Of a stretch of 64,000 nucleotides of DNA, positions 8,261 through 60,352 are shown piece by piece. Location: positions 186,806,001 to 186,870,000 of the forward strand of contig OZ024743.1 of NCBI GenBank assembly GCA_964016885.1, given 5' to 3'. The stretch is from Eledone cirrhosa. Taxonomy: Eukaryota. The position numbers and the translations under genes were made by a program. The notes under the pieces were generated by a model, which was not told where the DNA came from, made no database searches, and saw only the letters and a program-made list of their open reading frames with translations. Each line of letters starts with the position of its first letter. The stretch's first letter is position 1.

Positions 8261-8449
8261 AATTGTGTCTACTTTTGGCACAAGGCCAGCAATTATCCCA
8301 GTGTATTACTGGTACTTTATTTTATCGACCCCATAAGGATGAAAGGCAAAGTTAACCTCGGTGGGATTTGAACTCAGATCATAAAGGGCCATAACTCTTT
8401 GCTGCAAAGCATGGTGTTCGACCCTCTACCGATACTGCCAATCCACCGC
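8261..8449 (-). mobile_element. tRNA-derived SINE family A, full length
   Basis: A box TGGCAGTATCGG, B box GAGTTCAAATCCC, central GCCTTTCATCCTTAxGGGGTCGATAAAA block, tail GGCCTTGTGCCAAAAGTAGA. TSD AGTATAATAAT at 8253-8263 and 8450-8460. Confidence 0.9.
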
Positions 8450-11400
8450 AGTATAATAATAATAAAAATAACGATTTGTTAAATCTACATTACGTTTATT
8501 GAGTAGTGATGTGCATTTCACTATTGATCAGTGGTCTGACAAGCTTTTGAATCCAGAGTCGGGAGATTGATACAGATCAAACATTCAGCTGGTCAATAGC
8601 GAAATCATAACAAATCATCCTTTTTATTATTATTATTTTGTATATATGTTTGTATATATATATATATGCATACATATATATATATAAGTAAATATATTTT
8701 TGACCAATAACCTCTTGATGCAAGTTTGCTGCTAAATTATATATATATATACATATGATGTGTATATCATCATCATTATCATCGTCATTTCAAAGTCTGC
8801 TTTCTCTGCTTGCAAGGGTTGGATGGGTTTACATAGACCAAGTCATTACTGAAGCAGAGCCACAGATCTCCCAGACAGGTCAGGGATCTGTTAGTCACTT
8901 ATGTACAGTCTCATGTTCCACCAAGTGCACAATTGACACAATTGAGGGTCCTCCAAACTCTTTGTTTGGCAAGATCTCTTCAACTGGATGCCCTTTCTAT
9001 CACCAACCATTTTAGAGCATGCACCGAGTACTTTTATATGTAGATCATCAACACTAGTGAGGTTGTTATGTCTTTGACATGATTGAGGGGTCATCCCAGC
9101 CCTTTATTTGGCAGGCTTTCTATGGCTGGATGCCCTTCCTATCACCAAACTCATTACAGTATTTATCGGATTCATTTATTCATGCAGTTTACCAAACTAT
9201 CGGGAGGCTCTCATTATATATATATATATACACACATACATACAACCTTTTCCCCACTCTCATTCTCATTCTTATCTTGACATCATTACCAGTACAAAGA
9301 GATTATCTTACATATATATATGCATCCTGATAAAGATAAAACACCATGAGATCAAGTACTCCCAAATTAATATTTACTTACACAAATATAATGTGATTAA
9401 AAAATAAACAAAAAGTACAAGTAGAAATAAATTAACTATTATCTGATTTCTAGTTAACAGAACATAACCTTGCATAGAAGCTGAACATACTTGGAAAACA
9501 GTGCAATAAAATTGTTAGAAAATATAAAGAAAAGTACAGCAGTTCCAATTATTGGCATCAGTTCATTAAATGCCAATTCTCTGTCACATGTATGGTATGT
9601 TTAGGTGACAGTAAAACATACTATATTCATTGTATATAATAGTATTGCAAAATAAGCTCAGATAAATATAAAATTCTAAATGGAACTGTGGATCACACAG
9701 TACAATAAAGATGCATCTAGAATTAATTGTTTTTCTGATACATTGTGAAGACATAGAAATACTAACATAACCAATATATTTCTGATTCGTATTAGTGAAT
9801 AAAATACAACATAAATACTGTCAGATATATTTTTATAACACATTTGCTAAAAGCAAGTTAAAAATTGAAAATGATAAATAGTTTGAAGAATACAAGAAAG
9901 AACATTTTCTTATATTATTAGACAAAATTATTTTGAGAATGAAAATATAAGTGATTAAGCAGAGATCTTCAGCTAAAAATGTCATTTACTGTAAGAGTAA
10001 TATATAGTATAAGGAAAAGGCTTTTTATGTTTACTTGATACTATAAAATAAACATTTTTTCATTTAAACCTTAAATAAAATCATTCCCTGAAATTGTATG
10101 TATCTAAAAATGTATATAATTGAATTACCTCTTAGTCCAAAGAGCATTTAACTAACAAGACCAGTGGAAAGTTTGTCTTTTCTATTTTGTTCTATTTTAA
10201 TGCATAAACTTATAGATTTTCACAACTTTGTTTCATTATGTTAAAGAGTCAGATTATGTCTCCAATTTTGTCCCATAGTTAAGATTATTTAAAGTGTAAT
10301 TCTTGCAAGGCAAATATTATGACAAACAATAAGAATATAGACATTTTAGTTATTTTCTTAAAGTTATATTTGATAAAATAATAAAAATATTTCTTTGTTA
10401 ATAAGTAGGGGGGCATGTGAAATTTGAAATTGTGAGAATCACAAGCATAGAAAATAACTAATAAAATTCAATTGCTATAGCTGAGAAAATTGGGTAAATT
10501 ACCCTTAGAAATGGAAAAAAGTGGGCAGAAACATTTTAACTGAACGCTCTGTACTACATTAGCAAGATTCTTGAAAAGTACAAAGCAGCACAAATGTGTA
10601 TCACATTACAAAATGCAGTCCTTGCTCAAATACTATAAAATTTCACAATGATCTGTCCATTAGTAAACATACAATAAAGATTTAAATTAACAATCATATT
10701 TTAAAATATTTTCTGCTAAATCATTACAGGCTTCTAAGAATAGATCCTTCAAAATACTACAATTCATAGTTCTGAGCTTTGCACTATGAAAGTTCTGTTT
10801 GGACTAAATATTGCTTATGGCAGTATTTAAAGACAGCATTTTATTATCACAAAAGGATAAAAATACAAATATATGATTAATATGTAAATGAAGCACAAAC
10901 AGTTTTAGGTACCTTTAGTATTAAACAAATAGGACACTATTATATTTCCTCATTTAAAGTTGAAGGTTGTTTTGCTTTGAAGTCATTATAGTTTCATAGG
11001 AATTATAAATTAAAATTTCTTTATACAAAATGAAGATTGTTTTAAAATGATGTTAAATCTTTCTATGTACTTATGATAGATCAAACAGATCATAAAATAA
11101 TAAAGTGGATAGCAAATTTCCTCAATTGAAAATCTGTACCATAACTTTTCATAAACTCTTCAATAAACTACATAAAACTATGTCATATTATTCTTTAAGA
11201 TTTACACCAGAATCAAATAATGACATCTCTGAATACCACAAGATTGTTAAATATTATATTTCCAAAGAATAACGCATGACTGGGAAAAATTTATAAAAAA
11301 ACTATTGTGTTGTTTTCACTAAATACTTTACAGCTGATTACATAGATGATAGCACGTTACCCATGACAAGATGGGTTTAAAAGAAAAATATTGATTCTGA

Positions 11401-16960: not shown

Positions 16961-19130
16961 ATCATCATCATCATCATCATCATTTTACGTCCGCTTTTCC
17001 CTGCTTGCAAGGGTGGGACGGGTCTTATTCAGCACAGCATCTCTCCACTCGTCACGGTCCCTCGTCATCTCCACCGTGAGCTTCAATGATCTGAGGTCTG
17101 TTCTCACCACCTCCGCCCATGTTTTTCGTGGTCTACCTCTACTACGTCTTCCTTCAACTGGCATTTCCTGGCACTTCTTCACCCATCGGTCATCCTCCAT
17201 GCGCATCACATGTCCATACCACCTCAGTCTCCTCTCCCGTACACTACATTCTATCCCTCTCAGACACAGTTTCTCTCTCAACACATTTATGCTGGGTCGT
17301 TCACGCACATTTACACTGCACATCCAACGGAGCATGCTTGCCTCATTTCTCTCCAGCCGTCGCATATCTTCTGCGGTAGCTGCCCATGTCTCACTACCAT
17401 GCAGCATCGCGCTCCTCACACAGGCATCATACAACCGGCCTTTCGTACGCAGGGAGAAACCCTTCTTCGTCAACAGAGGAAGCAGCTCCCTAAACTTCTT
17501 CCAACCCGTCCTTATTCTAGATACTATGGCCTCGGAACACCCTCCTCCCATGCTAATCTGATCTCCTAGGTACCGGAAGCTATCCACCACTTCTATAGCG
17601 CCCTCTCGCATTTGAAAAATGTGTCTATCAGTGCGACTTCTACTGTCTAATTTCCCTGTACATCTACTGCATACATATTTCTCCCTACCTGTTAGTTTGC
17701 CTGCTATCCCGCTACATCTCTTGTGTACCCAGGACCTACATTGTGTGCATTTTATAGAATTTATGCCAGTTCCTTTTCTGCATATCGAACATGGCCATTT
17801 CCCTGACGGAATCAGGGTTTTGTCCTCTTTTCTACTCATCAACACTTTTGTCTTAGCTAGATTTACTCTCAGTCCTCTTGCTTCCAACTGCTGTTTCCAT
17901 AGCCGGAATTTATTCTCTAGCTCCTCTACTGATTCTGCCATAAGAGCCAGATCGTCAGCATAGAGAAGTTCCCATGGACAGCCAGTCTTAAACTCCTCTG
18001 TTATGGCTTGGAGGACTATAATGAACAAGAGCGGGCTGAGGACCGAACCCTGATGTACTCCTACTTGTATCTGGAATTCCTCACTAAACTCCATTCCTAC
18101 CCTGACTTTACTGAGAGTACCTCTGTACAAAGTTTGCACTGTCCTTACAAGCCATTCCTCAACACCCAGCTTCCTTAGGGACCACCAGATGACAGATCGG
18201 GGTACCCTATCAAAGGCCTTCTCTAGGTCAACAAAGGCCAAGTATAGTGGCTTATTCTTCTCTAAGAACCTCTCTTGCATTTGTCTCACCAAGAAGAGGG
18301 CATCTGTTGTACTCTTCCCAGGCACAAAACCAAACTGCATCTCATCTAGTTTGACCCTTTCTCTAATTAGTTGTGCTAAAATCCTTTCTGCCACTTTCAT
18401 AACCTGATCTATCAGTTTTATACCCCTATAATTGCTCCTCTCCAAAGCATCCCCTTTACCTTTGTAGCAATTTATGAGAATACTGCTGCACCAGTCTTTG
18501 GGTATGACACCACCATATATAGCCTGATTGATTATGCGTGCAACCAGTTTAGTGCCTACGTCCCCTGATGCCTTCAGCATCTCAGCAACTATTCCCGATG
18601 GTCCGGCCGCCTTACCATTTTTCATTTCCCTAATCGCCTCTTGGACCCTATATTCGTCAATCTCAATAGCTGGTCCCTCTGTCGGATCTACCAAGGGTAA
18701 TTTCTCTCTCTCCCATTCGTTCTCCACATTCATCAGTCTCTCATAATGGCATTTCCAGGCCTCCTTTTTCTGGTCATTCGTGACACTAAGTACACCGGCA
18801 TCATCCCGGACACATTTATCACCAACAACATCCTGATTTGCATTGACACACTGCCTTGCAATGTGGAACACCGCACGCCTCTGATCTTCCCGTCGCAGAA
18901 CATTGGCAAACCTCCTACTCTCTGCCTCCCTGCGTGCTAAGTACACCTGACGTCTAGCTTCTCTCTTAGTGGCTGTATATTCTTCCCTACTCCCACCCTT
19001 ATTCCAAGCCTTCCATGCTAGTCTTTTGTCTCTAATAGCCTTATCTACACTGCTGTTCCACCACCAGGTCACTCTCTGTCTGGTTGGGGCTCTGCTCCAG
19101 CCACAAGTTTCATCAGTAGCCTTCAGCAAT
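16961..19130 (-). mobile_element. RTE-clade LINE, 5'-truncated, young; RT with internal PHD finger and (ATG)n tail
   Basis: Uninterrupted 714-aa ORF 16985-19129 with RT motifs (KAAGPSG, NYRGIKL, QFGFVPG, FVDLEKAFD, GVHQGSVLSPLLF, YADD, FRYLG) and an RTE C-terminus (RRLRWYGHV, RGRPRKTW). The stop is followed almost directly by (ATG)n at 16961-16983. The APE endonuclease is absent. Confidence 0.95.
16985..19129 (-). CDS. RTE reverse transcriptase ORF fragment (no true start codon, N-terminally truncated)
   Basis: Provided ORF; RT subdomains intact, including YADD. Confidence 0.9.
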   Translation of the reverse strand: MLKATDETCGWSRAPTRQRVTWWWNSSVDKAIRDKRLAWKAWNKGGSREEYTATKREARRQVYLARREAESRRFANVLRREDQRRAVFHIARQCVNANQDVVGDKCVRDDAGVLSVTNDQKKEAWKCHYERLMNVENEWEREKLPLVDPTEGPAIEIDEYRVQEAIREMKNGKAAGPSGIVAEMLKASGDVGTKLVARIINQAIYGGVIPKDWCSSILINCYKGKGDALERSNYRGIKLIDQVMKVAERILAQLIRERVKLDEMQFGFVPGKSTTDALFLVRQMQERFLEKNKPLYLAFVDLEKAFDRVPRSVIWWSLRKLGVEEWLVRTVQTLYRGTLSKVRVGMEFSEEFQIQVGVHQGSVLSPLLFIIVLQAITEEFKTGCPWELLYADDLALMAESVEELENKFRLWKQQLEARGLRVNLAKTKVLMSRKEDKTLIPSGKWPCSICRKGTGINSIKCTQCRSWVHKRCSGIAGKLTGREKYVCSRCTGKLDSRSRTDRHIFQMREGAIEVVDSFRYLGDQISMGGGCSEAIVSRIRTGWKKFRELLPLLTKKGFSLRTKGRLYDACVRSAMLHGSETWAATAEDMRRLERNEASMLRWMCSVNVRERPSINVLREKLCLRGIECSVRERRLRWYGHVMRMEDDRWVKKCQEMPVEGRRSRGRPRKTWAEVVRTDLRSLKLTVEMTRDRDEWRDAVLNKTRPTLASREKRT

Positions 19131-21838
19131 TGAACATGACAATGTGTTACAAGGATGGCCCCTTCAATTTACAAGCATAACTCATTTTTGCCAGCTGAGT
19201 GGTGAGGAGCAATGTGAATGAAAGCCTTTGACTCCAAGATACAACATGCCACTTGGTCCAGAAATTTAACCACAACCTTTTGATAGTGAGTAAACATATT
19301 AACTACGAAGCCATCCCCCTTCACCAATGGATCTAATTTTTAAATTCAATTCATTGTTCATAATTAAACTATTTATAATATTCCTTTAAGTTTTAAACAC
19401 TTTTATTAAGAATGCTCTTACTGTAAAAACTGACAAATTGAAAACAAAATGTGTAAATGAGGGACAGTACTCAGATTTTGCAGCACTTTCCAGAATCATG
19501 ATGTCAATCATCACCATTATAATCGTTTAATGTGTGTTTTCCCAGCTAACAAAGTTTGGACACATCATAACAGACTGGTCAGTATTCAAGTAGAACCTCC
19601 AGGTGGGTTAGGGGACTGACATATTATCTTGCACTCTACTGAATGTATTTTATCATGGCACCAACACTGTAAATCTGGCCAGTATTTAACTAAAATGCCT
19701 GCTTGAATAAAAGATTTATGTTGATAATAATCTCAGGTTTTTAAATACATTTTTATTCATGCTATCATGTAAGATGTATCAATTTTCTTTATTTAGAAAC
19801 TAAGTAAAACGTTTTCCTCAAATATCATTTAGTTTACATCTTAAATGGAGTAAATGGCAATTAGGCAGAAGTGACCTTGTTTAGATTTGTGACTAAATCT
19901 TCAAAGAAACTGATCTTAATGATAAAGCCAGACTGTATTAGTATCTAATAATAAATCTTCTGCATAGGTAAGAATTATGTATTTCCAAATCCCTAAATTT
20001 ATATATAAGCATCTATATTTTATGAATGTAGCTTATTGATTTTTTAAAAATTAATTAATATTGGAAATTCAGTTTTAATATCAATTATTCACCAAGCAAT
20101 GTTTTAGAAAGAAGAAAAAGAAAACTATATTTTTGATGATAGGAGAGATTAGGAAACACACACACACAATGTGTTCTACAGAATCATCATTCTAAATGGT
20201 TAGAGGGCCTATATTTCAAATAACATATTTGTGACAGAGTCATAAGAACCAACTTAGTGTTGGTGATTTACATAATACACTCTGTAAAGTAGTTGGGGAT
20301 AGGAAGAGCATACAGTTGTAGAAAGCTTACCAAATAAAAAGTCAGAAGGACCCTCCAGCTCAGTCAATGACATGACAATATACTTAGTGTTAGTGATCAA
20401 CAGGATAAATGCATCCAATGCACTTTGTAAAGTGGTTGGTGATAGGAAGGTCATCCAGCCAGAGGTAACCTGTTAAATAAAGAGTCCTTCTGACTCTTCA
20501 ATTCTGCCATAGACATGAAAAATCTACATAGCGTTGGTGATATACACAATAAACACACATACTACATACTTTAAAATGGTACTTTTGGATGGGTATCTAA
20601 CCATAGAAAACCTGCCAAACAAAAGATCATGAGCACTCTTTAGTTATGTCATGTGCTGGTGTCGTGCAAAAATGCACTTCATTGCGAACAGGATCATATG
20701 TAAGTGAGTTGCTGGCTGCTGGTCCATCAATGTGGTCAGTAGCTCCTCTTAGTACCAATCTGGTCTGCTAATGACACCTCCAACCCTTGCTAACAAGCAA
20801 AGTGGATGTTAATTGATGATGATGATGACAAAACAAAGAAGCATAAAGCATCTTGGGTAAAACCCTTCTTCCTATACACTGTAGCCATTAATTCATTTAC
20901 CAAATTAGACAACCTCATTAGACTAAAGAAAATGTTAAAATGATCAGTCACAAAATGTATTAATAAAATATCAGTACTCTTTTCCTCACACACCTATATA
21001 AATTGTATAGAGCAATATTTTATATAAATGATCCATAACCTCAAAACATATTAATGGAAGCCTAACAATAAAAGCAAATTTCAAGGAATCAGCATTTGAG
21101 AGAAATAGTGTATGATAACTACTTAATCCAATTTCTTGAATGTAGGTTATGTTTTAAACTAATTATTCTTTATGTTAAATATCAATCGTGCTAAACATTG
21201 ATCATGTTAAGCATTAACCATGCTGACAGATGGCTAGATAAAATGCTTTACATTATTTGTTTCTGCTCTTTGTACTCTGAGTTCAAATATCATTGTTGAA
21301 CACTTTGCTTTTCATCCTTTCAGGGTGGATAAATACAGTAACATTTCAGGGCAATGACCTGGTGGAATTGTTGAATGTGATGTCTGGCTGTTTAAATTCT
21401 AATAGCAATGTTATTCCAAACTGTATCAACCCTTGATGTTCTTTTGGATAAAATTAGTGGCATAGAAAAGAGAGATTAGTCACACATAATAAAAAAAACT
21501 TGTCCATGCCTGCACTTTGGAGAGGGACATTACAGAGGAAGATACATAGTTTTACTAAATATTCAGAGGCCCTGGAATATGCTATCTACAAATAGCCACT
21601 GGAAACACCTAATTTTAAGAGTAAAACCATGAACTTTTTCTTTTTAGAATCACAAAAACTTACATGAATAAATACTAGTAACAGCATTGTTAAATACTAT
21701 AATCTATAGTTTTAACTGTTGATGAAATAAATGATATCTAGAGTTACTATCAAATAGAGAAAACATCATCCTATTATTTCCACTTCCTTTTAAGGTGTAG
21801 GAATAGGGAGATAAATTAACATCATTATCATATAGACT

Positions 21839-25728: not shown

Positions 25729-28681
25729 TTTTCTCTTTCTCTTAATTTCGAGTATATTTTTTTGACCGGCCACCTTCCTGGTGGCAAGGTTGTAAAAGAA
25801 AAGAAATTGTCATCCCTTGAATCGCAAGAATGTTTTGCATATTTTGAAGGTGCCAGCTATCGCAGCCATTTGTAGACTATGAATTAGGGAGCTGCGCTTT
25901 TTGTCCGCAAATCCAAGTTCGGTCATACTTTGGTCCAAGCGGGTTGGTATATAACCCGTAGCACCAACAATGATGGGTATGAAGCTAAAGGTGTATCTTG
26001 GATACTGGATTTGTAAGCTCCTCATCAATGGTCCGTAGATGTCCTCCTTCTCCTGTATTTTTCTGACAACGTTTACATCAAGTGGGCAGCTGATCTCCAC
26101 AACAGAACACGTTTTCAATGTGTGGTCCCAAACTACAATATCAGGCCGGTTGTGCTTTAATTTGGTGGCAGTTTTTATTTTCAGGTTCCACCAGTATTCC
26201 TTAGTGCCATCTGTCTCAATATATTCTTCCTCGTTTGTTGTTAATTTTGTTTTCCGAAGTGCGTTCCAGATAGTTCTAGCTATCCCATCGTGTCTCATGG
26301 GAGGTAGTAGCGAGATGACATTCTTTCGCAGCTGGCAACAATGTGGCTTACATCCTCGATCTTTGTTTTACATAGCCTACATTTATTGTCAGCTGCTGGC
26401 CCTCCTCTTTTGTGCAGCAGATATTTGGTAGGGAGTTCTTGTTCCTGTATTGCATAGAGATATCCCTCAAGGTGTGATGTCATAAACTTGTCGGAACTCC
26501 ATGCCAGGCTTTTTGAGTGGTTTATCCCCTCTATGGTCTGTGTTTTACGCCTCAAGTATCCATGCACAACTTTCTCTGTAAATTGGTCAATTTTTTTTTC
26601 TTGTTTGAACATTGAATAGGATCTTCCGATTTCTCTGGGTGAGAGATTTATATCAGGCTTTATTCCATATCTCTCCTCCAGATCAGTCGCTATTCTAATG
26701 ATATTTCTTTTTTCATGCTCATAAACCTGAGCAAGATGGTCGCCAACCTTTTTCCTCTGTTGAAGGTGTTGCTTCAGTGTTACTATCCGGGTCTCATATG
26801 TTGTTAATATTGATTTTAGACCCCGGCCACCTTCCTTGCGTGAGAAGTATAGCCTATCCACATCACCATTGATGTTAAAGTTCCCAGTAACACTGAGAAG
26901 TTTTCGAGTTCTAACATCCATCTCACTTAGTTCTTGCAATGACCAGTTCAGTAGGCCAAATGTTGGCGTTAGAATTGGCACAGCATAGGTATTGTGGGCA
27001 ATGTATTTGTTGTATGCTGACAGTTCTGATGACCATATTTTTTTTACTCTTCTGAGGTATTCAGTTCTGGTTCTCTCCTTATTTATGGGTCCATCATATC
27101 TGACATTCTCATCCTGTCCAAGATATCTGTAGTTGTCACCTGACTGCAGAGGTTGTATTGTCAGGCCGTTCATATCTAGATTTCTAGAGGAGGGCACTGC
27201 TCTTCCACGTTTTACTGCCAAATATGCACACTTGGACTCACCAAATTTCATTTTGATGTCGGTTGAAAATTGTGTAATGAGGTCCAATTGTTTCTTGATG
27301 TCATTGATATTTGGCCCATACAACTTCAGGTCATCAACAAAGAAAAGATGGGAGATACTTCTGGGCCCACTTCTTTGTCCACCTTGTTTCCTGAGTAGGT
27401 AAGATAGTGGATTCAGTGAGAGAACGAAGAGTAGTACTGACAAGCTATCACCCTGAAAGATGCCCTTCTGGTAATGTATCCTATCAGTCTTAACCTGCTC
27501 CTTCTCACCTCTAAGGATCAAATTGGTGTACCAGTTCTTGGTCAGGCGTTCAACAGCAGCTACTAATGGTTGTGGGACTTTAGCTAACTGTAAAGCCTTA
27601 ATAATCCACCCATGAGGTACACTATCAAATGCTTTTTGATAGTCCAGCCACACGATAGTCATGTTTCTGCGATTCTTTGTTGTTTTTTCCTGAATCATTT
27701 TGTTAGTTAGTAAGTGATCTATGCAACCCCACACCTCCCTCTTTCCACCAGCTTGCTCAGGTGTTATGATGTTGTTGGTAGCACAGTGATCCTGTAAGAA
27801 CAGGTTAAGGCACCCAGTATATAATTTATACATGATGTTTTGGCAGGCAATTGGGCGGTAATTTTTAGCAAGGGTGGTTTGGCTATTTTTGGGAATGAGG
27901 AGAGTAGTGGCAGTTGATAACCATCTGGGCAGTTCTTGTTGGCCCTTAATGGTTTCTGTAAACAGCCGTATGAGATCTTGCCGATAGAAAGTGAAATTCT
28001 TCAACCAGTATCCTGTAATGAGGTCTGGGCCTGGCGATTTCCTATTCGACATTTTCTGTAGAGCTGTTTCCAGTATTGACCCATCTATGTCATATTGTTT
28101 TGTCTGGACATGTTGGCAGTAGTCCTGTTCCAGTTGTTTTAGCCAATTAGCTTGTCTGTTGAATCCGTCATCCGTTTCCCATACAGATCTCCAGTAGTTC
28201 TCAACCTGTTCTTTTGAAGGGGTGTCGTTTACAGGGATTGAGCTTTTGCCACCGAAGCTGCGATAAACTGATTTAGGATCTCTGGCAAACAATCTATTTA
28301 GCACTTGTCGTTTATGGGCTGTTGACTTATATTTTAGTCTTTCTGTTGTAGCTGTGAGTTGTTGTTTCAACTGGTGTAATTTGGAGTTCAAAGTTTTAAA
28401 TTTGGTATCTCCAAATCGTCTCTCTAACTTTTTCTTTAGGTCTTCCTGGTGTCGTGTGAAGTTTCTCTCTATGTTGCATTTCATAACGACTGCGATGTGT
28501 GAGATACTTCGTCTCAGGGACAAAATTTTGGTTTTTAAATTTCGCATCCACGCTGGTTCAGGCTTTCTGTTTGTATCTTGATTGTGTGGTTTTAGATGTG
28601 TGTTATATGATAGTAATGTGACAGCTGAAACATATAACAAAACATTGAGCGTTTCAAATGTCGTTTCTACACCTTTAGATC
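25729..28681 (-). mobile_element. R4/Dong-type non-LTR retrotransposon (RT + CCHC + restriction-like endonuclease), 5'-truncated, one frameshift
   Basis: ORF motifs KSPGPD, NYRPIAC, WLDYQKAFDSVPH, GIFQGDSLS, FVDDLKLY, YRYLG, RKEGGRGL, CRLC..E...H....C, then RHD and RPDIVV...VEISCP...K (RLE) in ORF 25810-26298. There is an 81-nt 3'UTR, and (TATG)n lies on both flanks. Confidence 0.93.
25810..28681 (-). pseudogene. R4/Dong ORF split by a 1-nt frameshift at ~26298 (RYYLP / MRHD)
   Basis: ORFs 26295-28877 and 25810-26298 overlap at ATGA and join into the expected ..YLP-x-RHD.. motif. The first ~65 aa of the 860-aa ORF are translated microsatellite. Confidence 0.88.
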
Positions 28682-28682
28682 G

Positions 28683-28700
28683 TATATGTATGTATGTATG

Positions 28701-28732
<32 letters not shown>

Positions 28733-28865
28733 TGTATGTATGTATGTATGTATGTATGTATGTATGTATGTGTGTGTATGTATGTGTGTATGCGTGTGTG
28801 CAAGTGTGTGTGTGTGCGTGTGTGTGTGTGCGCGCGTGTGTGTGTGTGTTTATGTACGCATGTGT
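28683..28865. repeat. (TATG)n/(TG)n compound microsatellite
   Basis: Direct reading; the partner (TATG)6 is at 25705-25728. Confidence 0.97.
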
Positions 28866-29793
28866 AGGAAAGATCATGAGTTTTGCACCTAGATAGTTCC
28901 CCTCTGTAACACAAACTCAGGAAAGGTGTTTTTGTAGAAGACCAGCAGTCACTAATCTCTCCTCTTGATGCCACAGTTGTTGTCCAAGGAAAATCAATCG
29001 CCAAAGCAGCTTGGCACCACTGACATTACAACTATTTTCTCCAGCTGAGTGAACTGAAGCAATTTAAAATAAGGCATCAAGCTCAAGGAAACAATGCATT
29101 GCCTGGTCTGGGAATTGAACTCACAACCTATCTATTGCAAACCCAATGCTCTAACAACTAAGACATGTGCCTTCACATTAGAATGCAAAGATTAACATGT
29201 TAATTGCCCAATTGGTAGAGAACTGTGAGTTCTTAAATCTACATGGTTGAATTTAACAAGGGACTAAACAGCAAAATCAGCATGCATTAAGAGAGAGTTT
29301 GAAAACCATATTTTATTCAATTCATCTACTGTTCAGTAAGCTACATGCACACTTTTTTTTAACACAGATATTTCCTGTATCTCATGGAAATGTGACAATA
29401 TATCTACTGAAGATGAAAGACAGTTGAATCACAAAACCTTCTGTCATATTTAATTTATTATTATTATAAATTCATTGATGGTGGCTCACCTTACTGAGGT
29501 GTCAGGTGTTGCCTGTAAGGGTACCTAGCTGTTTCAGTGCCTTAAACTCGCCATCATCTGTGGTAATGCTGCGAGCATTACTGGCTTGCCTCAAAATGTT
29601 CTGTTGACCCTTATGATGTGCAGCTGCTTGTCGCACTTAGTGGTAAATTGATGATCATTTTCGTTTTTGTTTCTCTCTTTTTTTATTTTTCTATTTTTTT
29701 CTTCCTCTCGCCTGGGTCATGTGTTTTGGTGTGTTGTTTTTGTGAGGTTCCTGGGGATGGCTGGTTGTATTTGTTATATGCATTTATATGATG

Positions 29794-36964: not shown

Positions 36965-37343
36965 GGGTGGTGGATTGGCAGTATCAGTAGAGGGTCGGAC
37001 GCCATGCTTTCCAGCACAGTTACGTCCCTTTACGATCTGAGTTCAAATCCCGCCGAGGTTGACTTTGTCTTTCATCCTTACGGAGTCGTTAAAATAAAGT
37101 ACCAGTAATGTACTGGGTAATTGCTGGCCTTGTGCCTAAAGTAGAAACAATTATTTTTAGGGTGGTGGGTTGGCAGTATTGGTAGAGGGTTGGACGTCAT
37201 GCTTTGATGCATATGGCCCTTTCCATTCTGAGTTAAAATCCCGCCGAGGTCAACTTTGCCTTTCATCCTTACGGGGTCGATAAAATAAAGTACCAGTAAT
37301 GTACTGGCGAATTGCTGGCCTTGTGCCAAAAGTAGAAACAATT
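36965..37343 (+). mobile_element. Two SINE A copies in tandem
   Basis: Full copies at 36965-37152 and 37160-37343. ATTATTTTTA occurs at 36955, 37150 and 37341. Confidence 0.9.
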
Positions 37344-37467
37344 ATTTTTACCAGAAAGGCCTAGAAATCATTATTTTTCTCAGAAAGGCTTCTAATTCAA
37401 AACTATACTTAGATCTACTCAAAATTTACCTTAAATCTTAAATATATATCTTTTCTCTGGCTGTCTG

Positions 37468-40734: not shown

Positions 40735-42136
40735 TGATACAACAGCGGCTCATGGGTGGATGTTGTTTACCTTGACTTTACTAAGGCTTTTAATTCTGTG
40801 CCACACAAAAGACTTATGGCAAAACTCTCTGCAATGGGTGTGAGGGATGATCTTTTCGACTGGTTGAAATCCTTCATTCTCAGCCGAAAAGAAGTAGTCA
40901 CGGTTCTAGGACAGCATTCTTCACCATATGAGATGTCATCTGGTGTACCACAGGGATCTGTTCTTGGTCCCCTTTTGTTTGTGGCATATATTAATAACAT
41001 AGATGCCAACTTACAGAATGCCACGGTACTGAAATATGCAGATGACATCAAGCTGTACCTTGAAATCAAAAGGACTGATCCTGAAATCTACAACTCTTTC
41101 CTACAATCAGACCTGGACACATGCAGCAATGGATCACAGACTGGCAACTGAAGCTGGCTGTGGACAAGTGTACCACCATGCATTTTGGGAGGAAAAATCC
41201 AGCATCCACATACTCCCTCCACAACACTGATACCAAGAAGTCCTCTTGTGATCGTGACCTGGGCATTACTGTCAGCAGCGATTTGCGTTGGACAAAGCAT
41301 GTCTCTAAGATTGTCAAGAAGGCCGAGGGTGTCTTGGCATCACTCAGCAATACCTTTGTTAGCCGCTCTTCAGCCATCTATTTAAAACTGTATACAGCTA
41401 TGGTACGACCACACTTGGAATTCGCATCATCAGTCTGGAACCCCTATCTTGCTCAGAACATTGACCTCCTGGAAACTGTTCAGAGACGTGCAACCAAGCG
41501 CATACCCTCCATCAGACACTTACCATACTCTGAACGCCTTGCTTCCCTGGGCATGGATTCATTGAAGCTCTGACGTCTGGCAATGGACTTGGTGAATACT
41601 CACAGAGTTATTAACCATCTCACCAATTGCAACCCTGAGCACCTTTTTGATCTCCATGTGTCTAACACACGTGGACATGCCTACAAAATCAGAAAACAGC
41701 ACAGCTCCCATGACTTTCGTAGACATTTTTTCACGCTCAGAGTTGCTGAAGCATGGAACAAACTGCCTGCGTCAGTTGTTAGCTGCCGAGACACTGCATC
41801 CTTTAAGACACTCATGCTTCCCGAAATACGCCAAAGCTACACCTGATGTACCCCTTCCATACACATGCACACATGTGTGTATCATGACTCGTGCACTGTT
41901 CATTTTCCTGATGTTTGTGCATTGCCCTATGTACTGTACATGCACTTTTTGATGAGTTGTGGTGCACCTGAGCACTGTACACAATATTTCATTGTTATTA
42001 TTGTTATTATTATTATATCATGACTCATACACTTTTCATTTTCCTGACATTTGTACATTATTCTATGTACTATACATGCACCTTTGATGAGTTGTAGTGC
42101 ACCTGAGCACTGTACACAATAATTTCATTATTATTA
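40735..42136 (+). mobile_element. CR1-clade LINE, 5'-truncated, with duplicated 3'UTR and (ATT)n tail
   Basis: YLDFTKAFNSVPH, SGVPQGSVLGPLLF, YADD, RDLG, VRPHLEFASSVWNP, VQRRATK, TRGH, RV...WNKLP. Frameshift at ~41120 and an in-frame TGA at 41571. Confidence 0.92.
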
Positions 42137-42571
42137 AGTATAAACCATATTTAAACTAATTTAGTTATTTTGTATGTCTGATTTCCAAATAACTTTATAG
42201 ATATGCTGATTTATCAGTTATTTCTCTCTTGTTTGAATAATGAAACAAATAAATAAAATTTAAAAAGAAAAATTGAACTAAAAAATACATTTTAGAAAGA
42301 TACAAGCAACAGACTTTTCTGAATGGAAAACAAAATCAAGTACAAGTATCTCATTAGAATATCATATTCAATCAGAATAAATGAAGTGTCTAGAAATTCT
42401 TATTTCCCATAGGACTAATTAAATACTACCTATAATAACAAACAGAAAAAAGACTTCCTATAAACTTGTTAATATCAACCATTAAATATATATATATATA
42501 TATATATACATATATATGTTTGTTTGTGTGTGTGTGTGTGTGTGGATATGTATGTATATATATATATATAT

Positions 42572-43340
42572 TATCATCATCATCGCTGTATAAGGTCTAT
42601 TTTCCATGCTTGCATGGGTTAGATGGGTTATCATGTTTTGAGGCTAGACTCCTCAGGTGGCCCTTCTAATACCAACCATTTACATGTACTAGGAGTAGGG
42701 TTTCTATGACTGGATGCCCTTGATAAGACCAACCTCTTTAAAGCATTTAATGAGAACATTTTATCCTGACATTGGCACCATCCAATTACAGTGTGGACAG
42801 GGTGCTTATCTTCGTGGCACCAGTACTGCCACTGTACAGGTTTGGCCTGAGTACCTGTTTATTATGGCATCATCATTAGGGAGGCATTGCAAGGAATATA
42901 GATGTTCCTACCGACATGAGAAAGGCTGCCTGAGGTTAAGGATGTGGCCTTTAAGTGTGTGAGTTGCTTCTGGTGGTATATTGGGAGGCGTCCTGGCTAT
43001 TCATACTGGCTTTGGTTGGATAAGGCTGTGAATTAGGTACGTGGTTGGAAGTAGGGGCTCATCTTTCTTCTATGTTGACATGGGTTGTACAGAGAAAATG
43101 AATTGGGTAGGGTGAGAGGGGGCACATACTATGCGTGGGGGTGGGAACATTTCTTTTTCTTTCTGTGTTTCCATTGGTTAGATGAGGGAAGTAGTGAGTG
43201 ATGATCCAGCTGCCTTTCGTCTCTTCATATCCTGAATTGCCTTATTATACGGCCGCTAACCTGAATGGCTGACCCCTCTGTTTAGTCTACTTGGGACAGA
43301 CCATCTTCCTCTTCATTCTCTTCTTGCAATGTGTGATTTG
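42572..43340 (-). mobile_element. Non-autonomous element with RTE-type (CAT)n tail
   Basis: catcatcatc..tttccatgcttgcatggg terminus and ggatgccctt blocks; GC-richer body with no ORF. Related pieces at 8765-9150, 12550-12675, 20400-20830, 22195-22455, 46175-46325 and 58880-59020. Confidence 0.5.
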
Positions 43341-43401
43341 GTCTTTCCAAATACAATACATTTAATGATATATTTTACTAATATTATAATAATAAAATAA
43401 T

Positions 43402-44118
43402 AAATCAGATTTGTATTGGTGCAGTATGGGAGTTGGAAGCAAAATAGGCAACAAATAAGACAGTCATTATCGACTGATATATATTGTTTGCATTTGTCTC
43501 TTGGTTAAGGATTGATGACTAAAAGGATTAAGCAAAGTTATTAGAGACCCATTGGCTAAGGGATAAGAAGATCCAACTTCAATTTAGGAACTGAGAGAGT
43601 TTGCAGGCTGTGCAGTAAATACAGCTACATTTTGTTTCCTTGAAAAACGTTTCATTTGTGTTGTGGTAGATATAAGCTATTTTTTCTTTTACCTGTACAG
43701 TTTCAAGTAAGGGATTGTAAGCTTTCATTATATTAATGGCCTTGTGCCAAAAGTAGAAACAATTATATTAATTACATGGAAATACCATATCTAATAAGAT
43801 GTCATCGATTACCCAGCCACATGGCTATCTTTGATGGGTTAGAAAAGCATATTTTCTACCAAGAGAAGTCAGCTTAAAAGTGGTGCAGTTTCCAATAATT
43901 AATTGGTTTGAAATACCTGAGTATTTAGTCATTTGGGATTGTTTTGTAGTAGAAAGATAAGTGAAAAGCTACATTCCTGAAGTAGTGATCATATGATCTG
44001 ACAGTGGAGTAAGAGTGATGTTTGGGTTTAGGATAAAATTAAAGAGAGACAAGATTCAAGGAATTTTCAAGAATTGGTCATTCAATTCAATTAAGTTTAT
44101 TATCACTGTTCCTGCAGT
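43402..44118 (+). repeat. 717-bp direct duplication, copy 1 (derived)
   Basis: Matches 46552-47268 at a constant offset of 3150, with about six substitutions counted by eye and no indels. Confidence 0.95.
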
Positions 44119-44363
44119 GGTACTTTATTTTATCGACCCCATAAGGATGAAAGGCAAAGTTAACCTTGGCGGGATTTTAACTCAGATCATAAAGGGAGGT
44201 AACTCTATGCCAAGCTTTGAAGCATAGAGTTACCTCCCTTTATGATCTGAGTTCAAATCCCGTCAAGGTTAAATTTGCCTTTCATCCTTACGGGGTCGAT
44301 AAATTAAAGTACCAGTAATGCACTGATTTAATTGCTGGCCTGGTGCCAAAAGTAGAAACAATT
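44118..44363. mobile_element. SINE A fold-back (inverted half + forward copy)
   Basis: Arms 44118-44210 and 44222-44314 are reverse complements. The forward copy ends in the normal tail. Confidence 0.9.
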
Positions 44364-46329
44364 ATAATAATAATATATTTAAAAAAATGAATGCATGTGG
44401 CTTAGTGGTTAGAGAGTTGGATTCCCAATCACGAAATTTCAAGTAAGACAATTTATTTTTTTCAAGACAATTTATGTTTTGTTGTTCTCTCTACCAAGAG
44501 TAGATAGTATCAGCAGTGGTAACACCATTGGCTTGATATGACGAGTTCCACCCCACTCAGTAAGTGAATGCGGCTTGAGATCTTGTTGATTTTTGAAAAG
44601 AAAAAAAAATATACATTAATTCAATGAATTTCTTCTAATATATTACCAGTATGAAATGTAAATTAGTTTAAAGTAGACAATAAGAACAATTTTAACAAGA
44701 GAATCTATAATGAGCAAAGAAGAATTATGTGAAAAGATAACAATAAAGATACATAAAGAAATTAAAGTATTTTTAACTTGTAACCTGACCGAGGAAGAAA
44801 ACGTATGATGGAATAACGAAACTCCATATTTTAATAATGGATGAATAGTTAGTTGATTTATTTCCAAATATGTTTAAACAACATTAAAGTGTTAAATTTG
44901 ATTAAATCTCAAGAAAGGAAAATGAGAATTCTTAACTGTGGGATAACAAATGTAGTTTAGCATTTTCATTTTTCTCTCTCTCTTAAAAATCATGAAAAAA
45001 AACCCATAATATCAATAGAAGAAAAGTGTGATGGAAATATATTGATGGCCTGTTGAGGTTAACTACTTCTTTCCCCTTATAACAGGATGATTGTATTATA
45101 GCATAAGTCAGAAATGTGATACAGTATATATATAATAGCAAGACAGAAAACTTAAAATGATGAGAAATCAATATTCAGTAGATAGAAGTGACACATGAGA
45201 CTACTTGCAACAAGCCAGGGATACTACAGCCAGGGATAAATTACAGGTATAAAAAAAAAGTTTTTGCTAAGACGTATCGTATGGAATAATGATAATAAGA
45301 CATCGAAGGAATAATGATAAGTGTTAGAGAAGAAAGCTGCCCGAGTAGTAGACACTGAGAATAAGTCAAGAAAGATTCTGTTTAACAAGAAGGAAAATAT
45401 TTGGGATGGAGAGCCAGAAAGAAGTTTATGATATTTTCTTGCATATTAAAATAAATGTAAAAATGTGGATAGCATCCACATGATGCTTTTGATAAATTTA
45501 AGATTACATGTTCATTATAAATAATGTTTATATAGATTTAAAACAGATACTATATATAATTTACATTAAAAAAATGAATCTAATGAATATGAAAAGTATT
45601 ATATTCCAGTAGTTCTTAAAGGAAAAGTTTTGTCCTTTCACCCATTAATAAGACAAAATAGAGTTACATAACCTTAAATATTATTATGGAATATTATTAA
45701 AAAATTATAATTCTATTAAACATAGCAATTTGCCTGCCTTCATTACGAAACACTGTTATAGCCTATGGTATAATGCTTAGAAGTCAAGAGGTTAACAGTT
45801 AGTTATGAGATACTCACATTCCCTAAACAACATGTACATATTCTTGGAAATATAAATTAACAAAATGATTTGTAATAATGTTTGATATTTGCAAATTGTG
45901 ACAATCCTTTAAGAAAATATAGCTTTATTGATTATTTGATTCATGAAATATAAATTCAGATTTTTTTATTTCACAATTGTTTCTTCTCTCATATTATATT
46001 TTATGGATAGGTGTAGAAATTCAAATAGAATTAAAAATGCCTTGAGGTAGGTGTTTTATAGTAATATATACCTATCTAATATTAGGAAGTAATTAACTGT
46101 TATATTATAATAAATTTTAGATTTCAAAATCATATTTATAGATGCATATACAAATACATGTACTATATTATAATTTAGGAAGGGCATCCAGCTTTAGAAA
46201 CTGAGCCAAATTCAGTTCTGTAGGGTCACCTGACCTGGCATTGCTCCCAACGGGACAACTCGTCTAACCCATGCTAGCGTGGAAAGTGGGAAAATGGATG
46301 TTAAACAGTGATGATGATGATGATTACAT

Positions 46330-47300
46330 TTATTATTTAGTCTAGGAAGAAGGGCAAGGACCATAGACTTTTGCAGTCTGGTGAGTTTCATGCAATTGAT
46401 GTTCAACTTGAACATCTACATGTTCTTAGGTTAGTTAGAGGAGTGGGGCAGCACTCATAAATTGGTCCTCTTGATTCAGGTAACTAGAGTAGTTCTCATG
46501 CCTGGTGATTATGATTATGTAGAGATAGATGGAGTAGAGAATGAGAAGTTAAAATCAGATTTGTATTGGTGCAGTATGGGAGCTGGAAGCAAAATAGGCA
46601 ACAAATAAGACAGTCATTATCGACTGATATATATTGTTTGCATTTGTCTCTTGGTTAAGGATTGATGACTAAAAGGATTAAGCAAAGTTATTAGAGACCC
46701 ATTGGCTAAGGGATAAGAAGATCCAACTTCAATTTGGGAACTGAGAGAGTTTGCAGGCTGTGCAGTAAATACAGCTACATTTTGTTTCCTTGAAAAACGT
46801 TTCATTTGTGTTGTGGTAGATATAAGCTATTTTTTCTTTTACCTGTACAGTTTCAAGTAAGGGATTGTAAGCTTTCATTATATTAATGGCCTTGTGCCAA
46901 AAGTAGAAACAATTATATTAATTACATGGAAATACCATATCTAATAAGATGACATCGATTACCCAGCCACATGGCTATCCTTGATGGGTTAGAAAAGCAT
47001 ATTTTCTACCAAGAGAAGTCAGCTTAAAAGTGGTGCAGTTTCCAATAATTAATTGGTTTGAAATACCTGAGTATTTTGTCATTTGGGATTGTTTTGTAGT
47101 AGAAAGATAAGTGAAAAGCTACATTCCTGAAGTAGTGATCATATGATCTGACAGTGGAGTAAGAGTGATGTTTGGGTTTAGGATAAAATTAAAGAGAGAC
47201 AAGATTCAAGGAATTTTCAAGAATTGGTCATTCAATTCAATTAAGTTTATTATCACTGTTCTTGCAGTAGAGTAATTTATCCTGTCAACTCAAATCCCTC
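46330..47300 (-). mobile_element. Highly decayed LINE-like remnant (L2/Crack-type end?)
   Basis: TRLQKSMVLALLPRLN resembles the T.R...S.IP....LN C-terminus of L2-group ORF2. The rest is unreadable. Confidence 0.3.
46552..47268 (+). repeat. 717-bp direct duplication, copy 2 (probable source)
   Basis: See 43402-44118. Confidence 0.95.
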
Positions 47301-47669
47301 GAGTACTTCTTACTTAAACATCTCCAAGTCAATCATAGACATGAGTACATCACTAAGTATATTGTTTGTTGACATCTAAGTTACATCAGGGTAAATCTCT
47401 ACAGATATAGACACTCAGTGTGTGTCCATTGGCAGGGGGAGGGTGTGTGCGTGTGTGTGTGTGTGTGTGGGGGGGGGGGGGTAAATCAGCTAACACATGC
47501 CATTTTGGTTTCAAGAATGAAGAAAGGAAAACATTTTTAATCAGTTTGTTAATAAAGATATATGTATTTTTATTAAAGAATAAAGTGTGTTGGATTTAGA
47601 CTATAATGTCATGGTGAACAGATATGAAGTATAAACAAAGGTAATAACAATAATACAAATAAAACTAAG

Positions 47670-58020: not shown

Positions 58021-59024
58021 TAATGCATTTAAATAATAAATACAAAAAAAGGATGAAGAAATTTAAGACATGTTATTAGTGTTACGTGTATTTCAACAAG
58101 AATGAATATGAAATAAGGAAATGACAAAGATTTCATTTAAAATGCATTTTAGTATATAAGAATAAATCCATATACAGAATTTAATTTAAGGATTTATTCC
58201 AATATACTAACATTTTACCATTTCCTTATTTCATATTGCTTCTGGTTGAAACACTTGTAAAACTAATGAAATATCTTAAATGTCTTCATCATTCTTGTAT
58301 TTATCATTCTATCACATATTGAGATTTATGTTCTAGAAATATCATCATATACATGTGTGACAATAGTATTACATTTTGTAGTTATAAAATATTGATAAAT
58401 GGACAGTTGATCACTAAAAGAAGTAGGCCATAACATTTAGGAAATTTATTGGAAACCTAGAATTTAACATTCATCATTATTGTGTTTTTAATGCCCACTT
58501 TTCAATGCTGGCATGGGTTACCTGAGACCTCATGAGACAGTTTTTATATTTCTGATGCCATTCAATACTGTATTTTTAAATGTGGTATATACAGCTAATC
58601 TCTGTTGAAACACTAAAATACACAACCTATTGTTTATGTGGGATATGAACAAATGTTTTTGCTTGATTTAAATGGTGCCAATATAAAGTTGCGATGTGTT
58701 CCTTCACAGTATCTGTCTACAAACTCCACTTACAAGGCATTGGTCATCCCAAGACTTTAGGAGATGGCACTTGCCTAATGCGTAATACAGGGAGCAGGAA
58801 CCTGAAATCTTCATAACCAAACTGCCATGCTTGCACCTAATTGTAAAATGTATTACTTGTTAACTATATTATACAACTCATCAACATCATCATCACCACC
58901 CCTGATTAACATTTACTTTCCATGCTTTCATGAGTTAGACAGGTTGTAACCTTCTGAGGCTAGAGGAAACAAGTACCCATGTCTTGACCATAAGTTCAGT
59001 TTTAGGCTTAGTTTCTATTGAGGA

Positions 59025-60352
59025 CCTTATCTGGTGGGCTCTTAGAAAACTAGGTGTTGATGAATGGCTTGTGAGAGGTATACAAGCCATGTATAAAGAA
59101 ACAGTCAGCAAGGTTAGAACTAACAACGAATATAGTGAAGAGTTTAGCGTAAAAGTCGGTGTTCATCAGGGTTCCGTTCTTAGCCCCCTACTATTTATTA
59201 TTGCCCTTCAGGCTATAACAGAGGAGTTCAAGACCGGCTGCCCATGGGAACTCCTATATGCAGATGATCTAACGCTCATAGCTGAATCAATGGTTGAACT
59301 AGAGAAGAAATTCCGAACATGGAAGCATAGCCTAGAATCAAAAGGCCTTAAAGTTAACCTGTCTAAGACTAAAGTTCTAGTTTGTAGGAAGGAAAATAGG
59401 GCACCGGTCCCATCTGGGAAATGGCCATGCTCAGTGTGTAGGAAAGGAGTAGGCAGAAACTCCATTTTATGTTCCAAATGCAAAGTATGGGTGCATAAAA
59501 GATGTAGTGGGATCACAGGTAAGCTAACTAAGAATATAGATTTTATATGCGGCCGGTGCGCTGGTGCAATAAGTAGCAGCAAGTGCCCACAGAATACTAG
59601 TTCATTCCATTGTACAGATGGTTCTATAGAAATAGTGGACACCTTCCGTTACCTGGGTGACAAAATCAGCAGTGGGGGAGGGTGCTCTGAAAGTACAGTA
59701 GCTAGAGTCAGAACGGGATGGAAAAAGTTCAGAGAGCTTATACCACTATTGGCCACTAAAGGGTTCTCTCTAAAAATGAAAGGCAGGCTGTATGATGCCT
59801 GCATACGAACAGCAATGTTACATGGCAGTGAGACCTGGGCATTGTGTGCAGAGGATATGCACAGACTGGAGAGGAACGAAGCTTGCATGCTCCGCTGGAT
59901 GTGTAATAGTAATATACGTGAACGACAAAGCGTAAACGAACTAAGGGAGAAATTAGGAATAAGAGGGATCAGATGTTGTTTACTCGAGAGAAGACTACAT
60001 TGGTACGGTCACGTGATATGCATGAAAGATGACAGTTGTATAAAAAAGTGCAGGGCGATAAAAATAGACGGTAGCCACGGAGTAGGCAGACCCAGAAAAA
60101 CCTGGGACGACGTGTAGGTGTCACGACAAAAAAACACAGAGTCTACGCTGTAATGTGGCCATGTAGGTAACACAGTAAAAACCTCCCAGTCCAGACTGTA
60201 AACGTGGTTGGTGTTAGAAAGGGCATCCAGCCGTAGAAAACCCGCCAGACAGCCCTATACGAGCAGGACAACCAATCTTGCCTCAAGTGGGAAAACTCCC
60301 ATCCAAACCCATGCAAGCGCGGAAGATGGACGTTAAACGATGATGATGATGA
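59025..60352 (+). mobile_element. RTE-clade LINE (second subfamily, PHD-containing), 5'-truncated, ending in a SINE-like 3' segment and (TGA)n tail
   Basis: ORF to 60117 is highly similar to the 16985-19129 protein (GVHQGSVLSPLLF, YADD, PHD, GRPRKTW). Probable TSD TGAGGA at 59019-59024 and 60353-60358. Confidence 0.93.

Follow-up and report, generated by a model that had tools for sequence, protein, structure and literature searches.

How can one target-site duplication (TSD) come to enclose a short interspersed nuclear element (SINE), an inverted piece of the same element and 717 bp of host DNA copied from 3150 bp downstream? The question is raised by positions 43383–44373 of a 64,000-nt stretch of the Eledone cirrhosa genome (OZ024743.1), which was analysed as a whole and is called the window here. 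It lies on a 379-Mb contig of the 3.0-Gb genome, and coordinates are given as window positions. A single aberrant retrotransposition is the most economical origin, because the TSD is genuine, the left copy of the 717-bp unit is the inserted one, TSD-enclosed fold-backs recur in the SINE family, and a second element of the family (locus L030, described below) also carries copied host DNA inside its TSD. The anatomy, the TSD, the copy number of the unit and the recurrence of fold-backs and flank copying in the family are direct observations.

On the plus strand, the composite opens with the 13-nt 5′ TSD copy ATTATAATAATAA (43383–43395). This is followed by an 8-nt filler, AATAATAA (43396–43403, plus strand), which repeats the final 8 nt of the TSD in tandem. 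The final 2–3 A residues of the filler overlap the start of the copied unit as microhomology, and homology to 46552 onward starts at 43402. Alignment places the inserted copy (copy A, 43402–44118, plus strand) in direct orientation relative to its counterpart at 46552–47268. The next part is an antisense SINE arm of 93 nt (44118–44210, minus strand), which copies 44222–44314 and ends at about SINE reference position 146. An 11-nt loop (44211–44221) sits at the turn between the arms, where the GC at 44209–44210 pairs with the GC at 44222–44223, giving a microhomology of 2 nt. The forward SINE (44209–44365, plus strand), assigned by its family match, is 5′-truncated at about position 42 of a real 205-nt reference copy. 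It keeps the normal 3′ end of the family, ...GTAGAAACAATTAT (also ...GGCCTGGTGCCAAAAGTAGAAACAATTAT), which ends at 44365. The 3′ TSD copy (44361–44373, plus strand) is identical to the 5′ copy, and its first 5 nt (ATTAT, 44361–44365) double as the last 5 nt of the SINE. The original prediction had described the same 13-mers, a 717-bp copy with about 99% identity, and an inverted SINE half next to a forward SINE with its tail. All of these parts were recovered where it had placed them; the 8-nt filler is an addition to that description.

The two SINE arms form an inverted repeat with 5 mismatches over 93 nt (95% identity) and 11 nt between them, and the variants ACCTCCC and CCAAGG are common to both. 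The predicted fold of the palindrome strand has an energy of −98.9 kcal/mol (z = −24). An Rfam search with the hairpin gave microRNA-precursor matches far below the gathering scores (for instance mir-3202, 49.8 vs 90 bits). We took these sub-threshold matches as generic hairpin matches. A separate, small hairpin lies in the 3′ end of the SINE (44335–44347); it reads GGC-CTTGT-GCC in other copies and has the loop CTGGT here.

The TSD was examined in a 384-kb sample, composed of the 64-kb window and 32 fold-back loci from elsewhere in the genome, and in a further 400 kb taken beside the window. In the 384 kb, ATTATAATAATAA occurs twice on the plus strand, both times at this insertion, and once more on the minus strand. 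The tail of the SINE family is ...GTAGAAACAATTAT, without poly-A, and its flanking TSDs have 11–20 nt and start with ATTAT. A 13-mer TSD with at most 1 mismatch was found upstream of 47/104 SINE tails in the 384 kb and of 17 of the 38 tails in the further 400 kb. Most of the 47 verified TSDs start with ATTAT. The upstream partner mostly lies 190–206 nt from the tail, which corresponds to the full element length; at this insertion the two copies are 978 nt apart. The scarcity of the 13-mer, together with the habit of the family to generate ATTAT-led TSDs, shows that the 978-nt bracket is a genuine TSD of the family type. The concern that an AT-rich 13-mer might match by chance was thereby ruled out. 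A direct TSD, an intact 3′ end at the 3′ TSD and the ATTAT preference are the marks of target-primed (non-LTR, i.e. without long terminal repeats) insertion, and the composite carries them.

The SINE family is abundant. One conserved 15-mer has 244,445 matches in the genome, so that at least 244,000 copies are present, and the window itself contains 21 BLAST segments. A 30-mer of the subfamily to which the SINE of the composite belongs has 1612 exact genome matches. An Rfam search at E ≤ 1 with the full-length copy at 8200–8500 gave no match, and hence no recognisable tRNA in the 5′ part. The element contains GAGTTCAAATCC, which we take to resemble a B-box. SINEs of this family are also found stacked head-to-tail, each on the ATTAT end of the previous copy (window 37003–37345 and loci L036, L051, and L057).

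The segments 43402–44118 and 46552–47268 align over 717 nt with 6 mismatches and 0 indels (99.2% identity). Outside these limits the identity breaks off at once, and the flanking sequences are not related to each other. In the 3.0-Gb genome, the unit has 2 full-length matches; the remaining 54 of the 56 matches cover no more than about 67 nt and fall on an embedded SINE tail. This tail (about 29 nt, plus strand, with its own ATTATATTAAT duplication) occupies 43727–43777 and 46877–46927 and is 100% identical in both units. Its presence in both copies indicates that the tail is older than the duplication. The left copy is bounded by the TSD on one side and by the outer end of the SINE arm on the other. 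The right copy (copy B, 46552–47268, plus strand, 3150 bp downstream) sits in single-copy DNA, and the genome search found its flanks to be single copy on both sides. Because of these contexts, the left copy can be identified as the insert and the right copy as the source. The composite thus contains, within its TSD, DNA that copies a nearby sequence still present at the source, as in templated insertions. Tandem or segmental duplication by unequal recombination was rejected, since the identity stops sharply at both edges and the flanks are unrelated. A 5′ or 3′ transduction was rejected as well: neither edge of the source carries a SINE head or tail.

Read support was drawn from Logan short-read contigs of three runs of one sample, probably the assembled animal itself, and from restriction site-associated DNA sequencing (RAD-seq) runs. 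Contigs from all 3 runs bridge 43000–43431, which covers the TSD, the filler and the start of the unit, with 0 differences at a depth of about 8. The depth is about 16 over 43402–43761, approximately twice the flank depth of about 8. A contig over 46895–47429 has a depth of 13, matching 374 doubled and about 200 single bases, with the boundary at about 47268. Both edges of the source copy are bridged. The RAD-seq runs gave nearly no depth over the unique parts. The duplication of the unit and the left junction are thus supported by short reads, and the right junction (44118) is provided by the assembly alone.

These data bear on the concern that a mis-join or a chimeric read might have produced the second 717-bp copy or the palindrome. 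Palindromes and near-identical repeats are, as a general rule, error-prone in assemblies, and none of the contigs listed bridges 44118 or the hairpin centre. The bridged left junction, the two-fold depth over the unit and the mixed-depth contig, which fits a duplication reaching to about 47268, speak against such an artefact. The structure also follows the TSD rule of its family, and about 500 similar palindromes lie on many chromosomes. We therefore consider an assembly artefact very improbable.

The fold-back part of the composite is not an isolated case. We searched the genome with motif patterns combining antisense and sense forms of a SINE block 10–40 nt apart, and used reversed patterns as controls. 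There were 38 sites with a turn near the ATGC...GCAT hairpin of the SINE and 463 sites with a turn in the B-box region, and the reversed controls gave 0. Judged from these patterns, fold-backs would number about 500 or more, roughly 0.2% of the copies of the family. The natural SINE hairpin was rejected as the main hot spot in view of the 38 sites there vs the 463 in the B-box region.

Two sets of loci were inspected and given L numbers (L026–L057 and L098–L147). The first comprised 10 kb around 32 of the 38 sites, omitting five of the six copies of one array; the second comprised the first 50 listed of the 463 sites, all on one contig. A uniform script handled 30 of 33 and 49 of 50 loci; in the other 4 the tail pattern failed. 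With few exceptions, one arm reaches the SINE tail, and the other, an inverted copy, is shorter and ends at SINE positions that vary from locus to locus. A TSD that is not of low complexity stands directly beside the inverted arm in 8/30 and 15/49 loci, and a low-complexity one in 2 and 7 more, respectively. By eye, the TSD beside the arm is unambiguous in L033, L034, L036, L038, L041, L043, L050, L054, L055/L056 (a segmental duplicate), and L057. One turn recurs: next to the self-complementary GTTAAC, a 2-nt stem closes an 11-nt loop. This geometry was found in 12 of the 49 loci and is the same as in the window copy.

In these loci the arm copies the adjoining forward segment from the turn, with short microhomology, and one TSD encloses both parts in independent copies, which is the pattern of snap-back synthesis. 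A palindromic master element was excluded, since arm lengths and TSDs differ from locus to locus and the subfamily 30-mer has its 1612 matches in ordinary copies. Two loci showed larger structures. In G000:C1:136440918–136478690 (L011–L016 and L026), one fold-back SINE with a 23-nt extra piece occurs six times at 5–10-kb spacing; this six-fold repeat is a larger tandem or segmental array that carries the palindrome along. At L129 (G000:C1:234574563–234584562), a fold-back SINE lies within a satellite with a period of about 310 nt and long (TG)n tracts.

Copying of host DNA was also observed at other insertions of the family. The palindrome extends 40–148 nt beyond the tail into the 3′ host flank in 8 of the 49 loci, including one where this flank is a (TA)n tract. 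Each such insertion has thus left its 3′ flank duplicated in inverted orientation. Loci with a long run-through (43–148 nt) include L106, L110, L112, L120, L126, L128, and L139, and, judged by eye, L052. A further 7/49 loci (L098, L103, L109, L131, L133, L140, and L146) have an overrun of only 9–13 nt, which is the size of a TSD.

L030 (G000:C2:53460168–53470167) is a full-length SINE on the minus strand with 126 nt between its 5′ TSD, ATTATCTCAATAGTG, and its head. This 126-nt piece copies, in inverted orientation and with 2 mismatches, the 3′ flank of the same SINE from 21 nt past the tail; in plus-strand coordinates of the locus, the insertion lies at about 2370–2709 and the source at about 2234–2359. 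L030 was met incidentally among about 47 unselected TSD-verified copies, so that the frequency can be put, very roughly, at a few per cent at most. The 400-kb neighbouring stretch yielded no other case of host DNA inside a TSD. Candidates for duplications from farther away (L051, two in the 400-kb neighbouring stretch, L103, L129, L139, and L145) were rejected as tandem SINEs or as satellite or low-complexity matches. A long direct copy from kilobases away is present only in the window copy; the other host copies are inverted and have 40–148 nt.

The orientation of these copies points to the end that would have taken up the host DNA. The reverse-transcribed end uses its own primer strand as template, and the flank copies that it makes, as in the run-through palindromes and in L030, are inverted for this reason. 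A snapped-back strand extending on the resected flank would likewise yield an inverted copy. For a direct copy, such a strand would require a plus-sense RNA or the top DNA strand as template. The 717-bp copy is direct, and for this reason we prefer the reciprocal end as the copying end. A direct copy from 3.15–3.9 kb downstream would fit a reciprocal end that was extended on the resected bottom strand. The 8-nt slipped repeat at 43396–43403 and the AAA overlap at 43402 fit the processing of a reciprocal tail.

With the above results in hand, we tentatively favour, at somewhat less than an even chance, an origin of the composite in one faulty target-primed reverse transcription, combining a snap-back end with copying by the reciprocal end and subsequent joining. 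The endonuclease of the partner long interspersed nuclear element (LINE) would nick the bottom strand at ATAAT. The 3′ AUUAU of the SINE RNA could then pair with the nicked end, and reverse transcription would proceed to about SINE position 42. At this point the 3′ end of the cDNA may have snapped back through the 2-nt GC pairing, leaving the 11-nt loop at the turn, and used its own strand as template for the 93 nt that complete the palindrome. A break of the second strand, followed by 5′ resection, would leave the downstream bottom strand single-stranded. The reciprocal end has the TSD as its 3′ tail; it would slip once and generate the 8-nt repeat. It would then anneal at 46552 via the 3-nt AAA microhomology, extend for 717 nt and be released. 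Finally, the two 3′ tails would be joined at 44118 with 1-nt microhomology and filled in. The order of events, the end that copied the 717 nt and the use of a DNA template are what we infer from this arrangement.

The last steps of this scheme resemble polymerase theta-type templated insertions and synthesis-dependent microhomology-mediated end joining. There, a 3′ tail anneals by a few bases to single-stranded DNA in its vicinity, extends, dissociates and joins, and the inserts are typically tens of bases long. Short slipped repeats of the flank at the junction are a shared feature; the insert of 717 nt, as opposed to tens, is the difference.

Several observations weigh against this scheme and have to be set beside it. 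The SINE arms differ at 5/93 positions (5.4%), and the 717-bp pair at 6/717 (0.84%); the difference is significant (Fisher p = 0.005, Poisson p = 0.001). In a single event both pairs would be born identical and should diverge alike, so the excess in the arms is unexpected. Relative to other copies, the right arm accounts for three of the changes and the left arm for two, and only one is at a CpG. A rescue of the single event would presumably need gene conversion of the 717-bp pair or faster mutation in the SINE palindrome. Error-prone snap-back synthesis is unsupported as an excuse for the arm divergence, since the arms and TSDs pooled over 11 fold-backs did not differ significantly (2.76% vs 1.1%, p = 0.28).

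The microhomologies at the outer junctions amount to just 1 and 3 nt, and the scheme requires about 3.9 kb of resection and a release after 717 nt. The right edge of the source falls exactly on a splice-acceptor-like YAG, an edge that a DNA template does not predict. Among the 80 fold-back loci examined, long extra DNA was found only in the window copy. The 80 comprise 33 loci with the hairpin turn, 3 of which were checked by eye only, and 49 of the 50 with the B-box turn; one segmental duplicate and one satellite were excluded from the count. One case in 80 means that the long-copy step is rare and that its mechanism rests on a single case. On the assembly side, the 44118 junction and the hairpin centre remain unbridged by the listed contigs; in a narrower second read mapping at 44118, the sole contig continues into the source's own flank. 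No paralogous empty site or alternative haplotig was found in the genome assembly, where the flanks are single copy as wholes.

The original prediction of one retrotransposition event therefore holds in part: the TSD, the inserted left copy and the recurrent TSD-enclosed fold-backs agree with it, but the arms have diverged more than the 717-bp pair. It had also proposed that the folded-back cDNA jumped a second time. The 93-nt arm bears out the fold-back; the second jump of the same strand is not favoured, as the copy is direct where an inverted one is expected.

The divergence gap would be explained if the composite arose in two steps. An older fold-back SINE would have been broken later at the edge of its palindrome, and the break repaired with a 717-bp insert templated 3.15 kb downstream. 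The divergence of the arms is about six times that of the 717-bp pair (p = 0.005), as it should be for an older SINE. In other fold-backs the TSD adjoins the arm, so the simple form is the usual product, and the strong predicted fold of the palindrome is of a kind generally known to be fragile. The second rare event, however, must have struck within 0–8 nt of the old 5′ junction. Breaks in a palindrome are generally expected at the tip or at both bases of the cruciform, whereas in the composite neither the centre nor the right arm is disrupted. The slipped 8-nt TSD repeat (43396–43403) resembles the processing of an original 3′ overhang, and L030 shows that host DNA is taken up during insertion itself. 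For these reasons, a two-step origin seems unlikely to us.

The acceptor-like edge of the source directs attention to a different template within a single event. After the 93-nt snap-back, the same cDNA strand could have switched at 47268 to a plus-sense RNA (a nascent pre-mRNA or an excised intron) or to the top DNA strand, copied back to 46552 and joined the upstream end. The TSD, the anatomy and the evidence from the fold-back class serve this reading as well as they serve the reciprocal-end scheme. Non-LTR reverse transcriptases can change templates where homology is slight or absent (10.1101/792986), and LINE-1 forms chimeric insertions via template switching (PMC11702581). Next to the junction, ATAAAGTAC of the SINE matches 47272–47280 imperfectly (8/9).

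In favour of an RNA in particular, the right edge of the source, ...TTCTTGCAG|T, is a YAG after 10/14 pyrimidines. A YAG preceded by at least 10/14 pyrimidines occurs at 233 of 63,940 plus-strand positions (0.36%). The left edge of the source is preceded, at a distance of 4 nt, by a GT, and by codon arithmetic the open frames 46435–46547 and 47269–47379 are in phase across the putative splice.

Other observations argue against a spliced RNA. The putative 5′ splice site (AA|GTTAAA) is poor, and the acceptor-like edge was spotted after the fact. The 6 mismatches of the unit show no A-to-G or other RNA-type signature. The window has 50 open frames of 85 aa or more; 38 of them were searched against Pfam, together with 2 short frames beside the source, and the remaining 12, which overlap other frames, were omitted. 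Only four LINE reverse-transcriptase frames gave matches, and the frames flanking the source gave none. The frame 46435–46608 (57 aa), compared with 1.84 billion proteins, had 4 matches; the best was a fascin-repeat protein, a weak match whose score is inflated because it sums six repeats. When this protein was used for a tblastn search in the window, the E value was 0.07 and no further exon was matched. We did not count the frame as a gene. As for the DNA variant, the top strand is normally resected and not exposed. The divergence gap between arms and unit applies here just as it does to the reciprocal-end scheme. A switch of the same strand is therefore a doubtful, though plausible, route.

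A more specific version holds that the 717 nt are a reverse-transcribed excised intron, and that the snapped-back enzyme jumped end-to-end onto the free 3′ end of this newly spliced intron, which would have come from the gene receiving the insertion. From the sequence features at hand, such an origin would be quite improbable. If true, the copy would be a fossil trace, beside a SINE, of an intron RNA converted back into DNA, and would be evidence that local nascent RNA can feed segmental duplication.

We compared the scheme of a snap-back end and a copying reciprocal end with published systems. During target-primed reverse transcription by R2 protein in human cells, snap-back synthesis takes place on the cDNA and, less often, on nearby target DNA (PMC11371274). 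The snap-back products of this R2 PRINT system have antisense element sequence at the upstream junction, which fits the 93-nt arm, the approximately 500 fold-backs and L030. R2 PRINT, however, is an engineered system acting at ribosomal DNA and is seen in reads, whereas we describe fixed germline SINEs whose LINE partner probably belongs to a different clade. The additional 717-bp direct copy from 3 kb away in the window copy also sets the composite apart from it.

For LINE-1, inverted duplications with 2-bp microhomology and a preserved TSD have been described (10.1101/2024.12.14.628481). The retained TSD, the addition of local genomic DNA at the junction, priming by 2-bp microhomology and resection on the kilobase scale are all shared with our case. 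Junction additions in LINE-1 insertions are attributed to processing of the reciprocal end after resection, and three cases are classed as 'templated'. Those cases come from human cell clones and tumours, in which they differ from ours.

The composite also has a likeness to twin priming. In 5′-inverted LINE-1 copies, an inverted 5′ segment and a direct 3′ segment lie within one TSD (PMC2912911). The same paper puts 5′-inverted Alu elements in primates at 1/5554, a very rare class. Twin priming was rejected for the composite: the inverted part there is an upstream part of the RNA that abuts the 5′ TSD, whereas the arm here duplicates 44222–44314 and stands 717–723 nt from the TSD. Chimeric retrocopies of the U6/L1 type (PMC4476161, 10.1101/2025.02.02.635956) resemble the composite in having a second template on the 5′ end of a retroelement within one TSD. 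Their second templates are abundant RNAs from elsewhere, in contrast to a single-copy sequence 3 kb away in cis.

The literature searched yielded no paper on fold-back SINE classes, which is weak evidence of absence. All steps of the scheme are covered by published R2 and LINE-1 outcomes, and no new mechanism is revealed. The composite is a fixed germline SINE example that combines snap-back and templated insertion. Together with the fold-backs, it forms a natural counterpart of outcomes only recently seen in LINE-1 and R2 experiments. Its readable junctions make it a clean natural record of an aberrant non-LTR insertion, from which the order of template use can be reasoned. One abundant SINE family has left some 500 or more small palindromes plus occasional host duplications (40–148 nt, inverted; once 717 nt, direct). 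Insertions of this type give rise to loci that can form hairpins and to small duplications nearby, and both supply raw material for regulatory RNAs and genome instability.

The surroundings of the composite contain other elements. The four LINE reverse-transcriptase frames matched by Pfam RVT_1 lie at 16988–19168 (minus strand), 26298–28916 (minus), 40738–41148 (plus), and 58939–60114 (plus); two of them have a PHD finger and one has a zf-RVT domain. Immediately 3′ of the TSD (44385–44460) there is a SINE-like head of another kind with the A-box-like TGGCTTAGTGGTTAGAG, for which Rfam at E ≤ 1 gave no tRNA match. The region is bracketed by two inverted segments of another repeat family (42570–42726 and 46175–46333), which are 72–83% similar, lie about 3.5 kb apart and each contain a (GAT)n tract.

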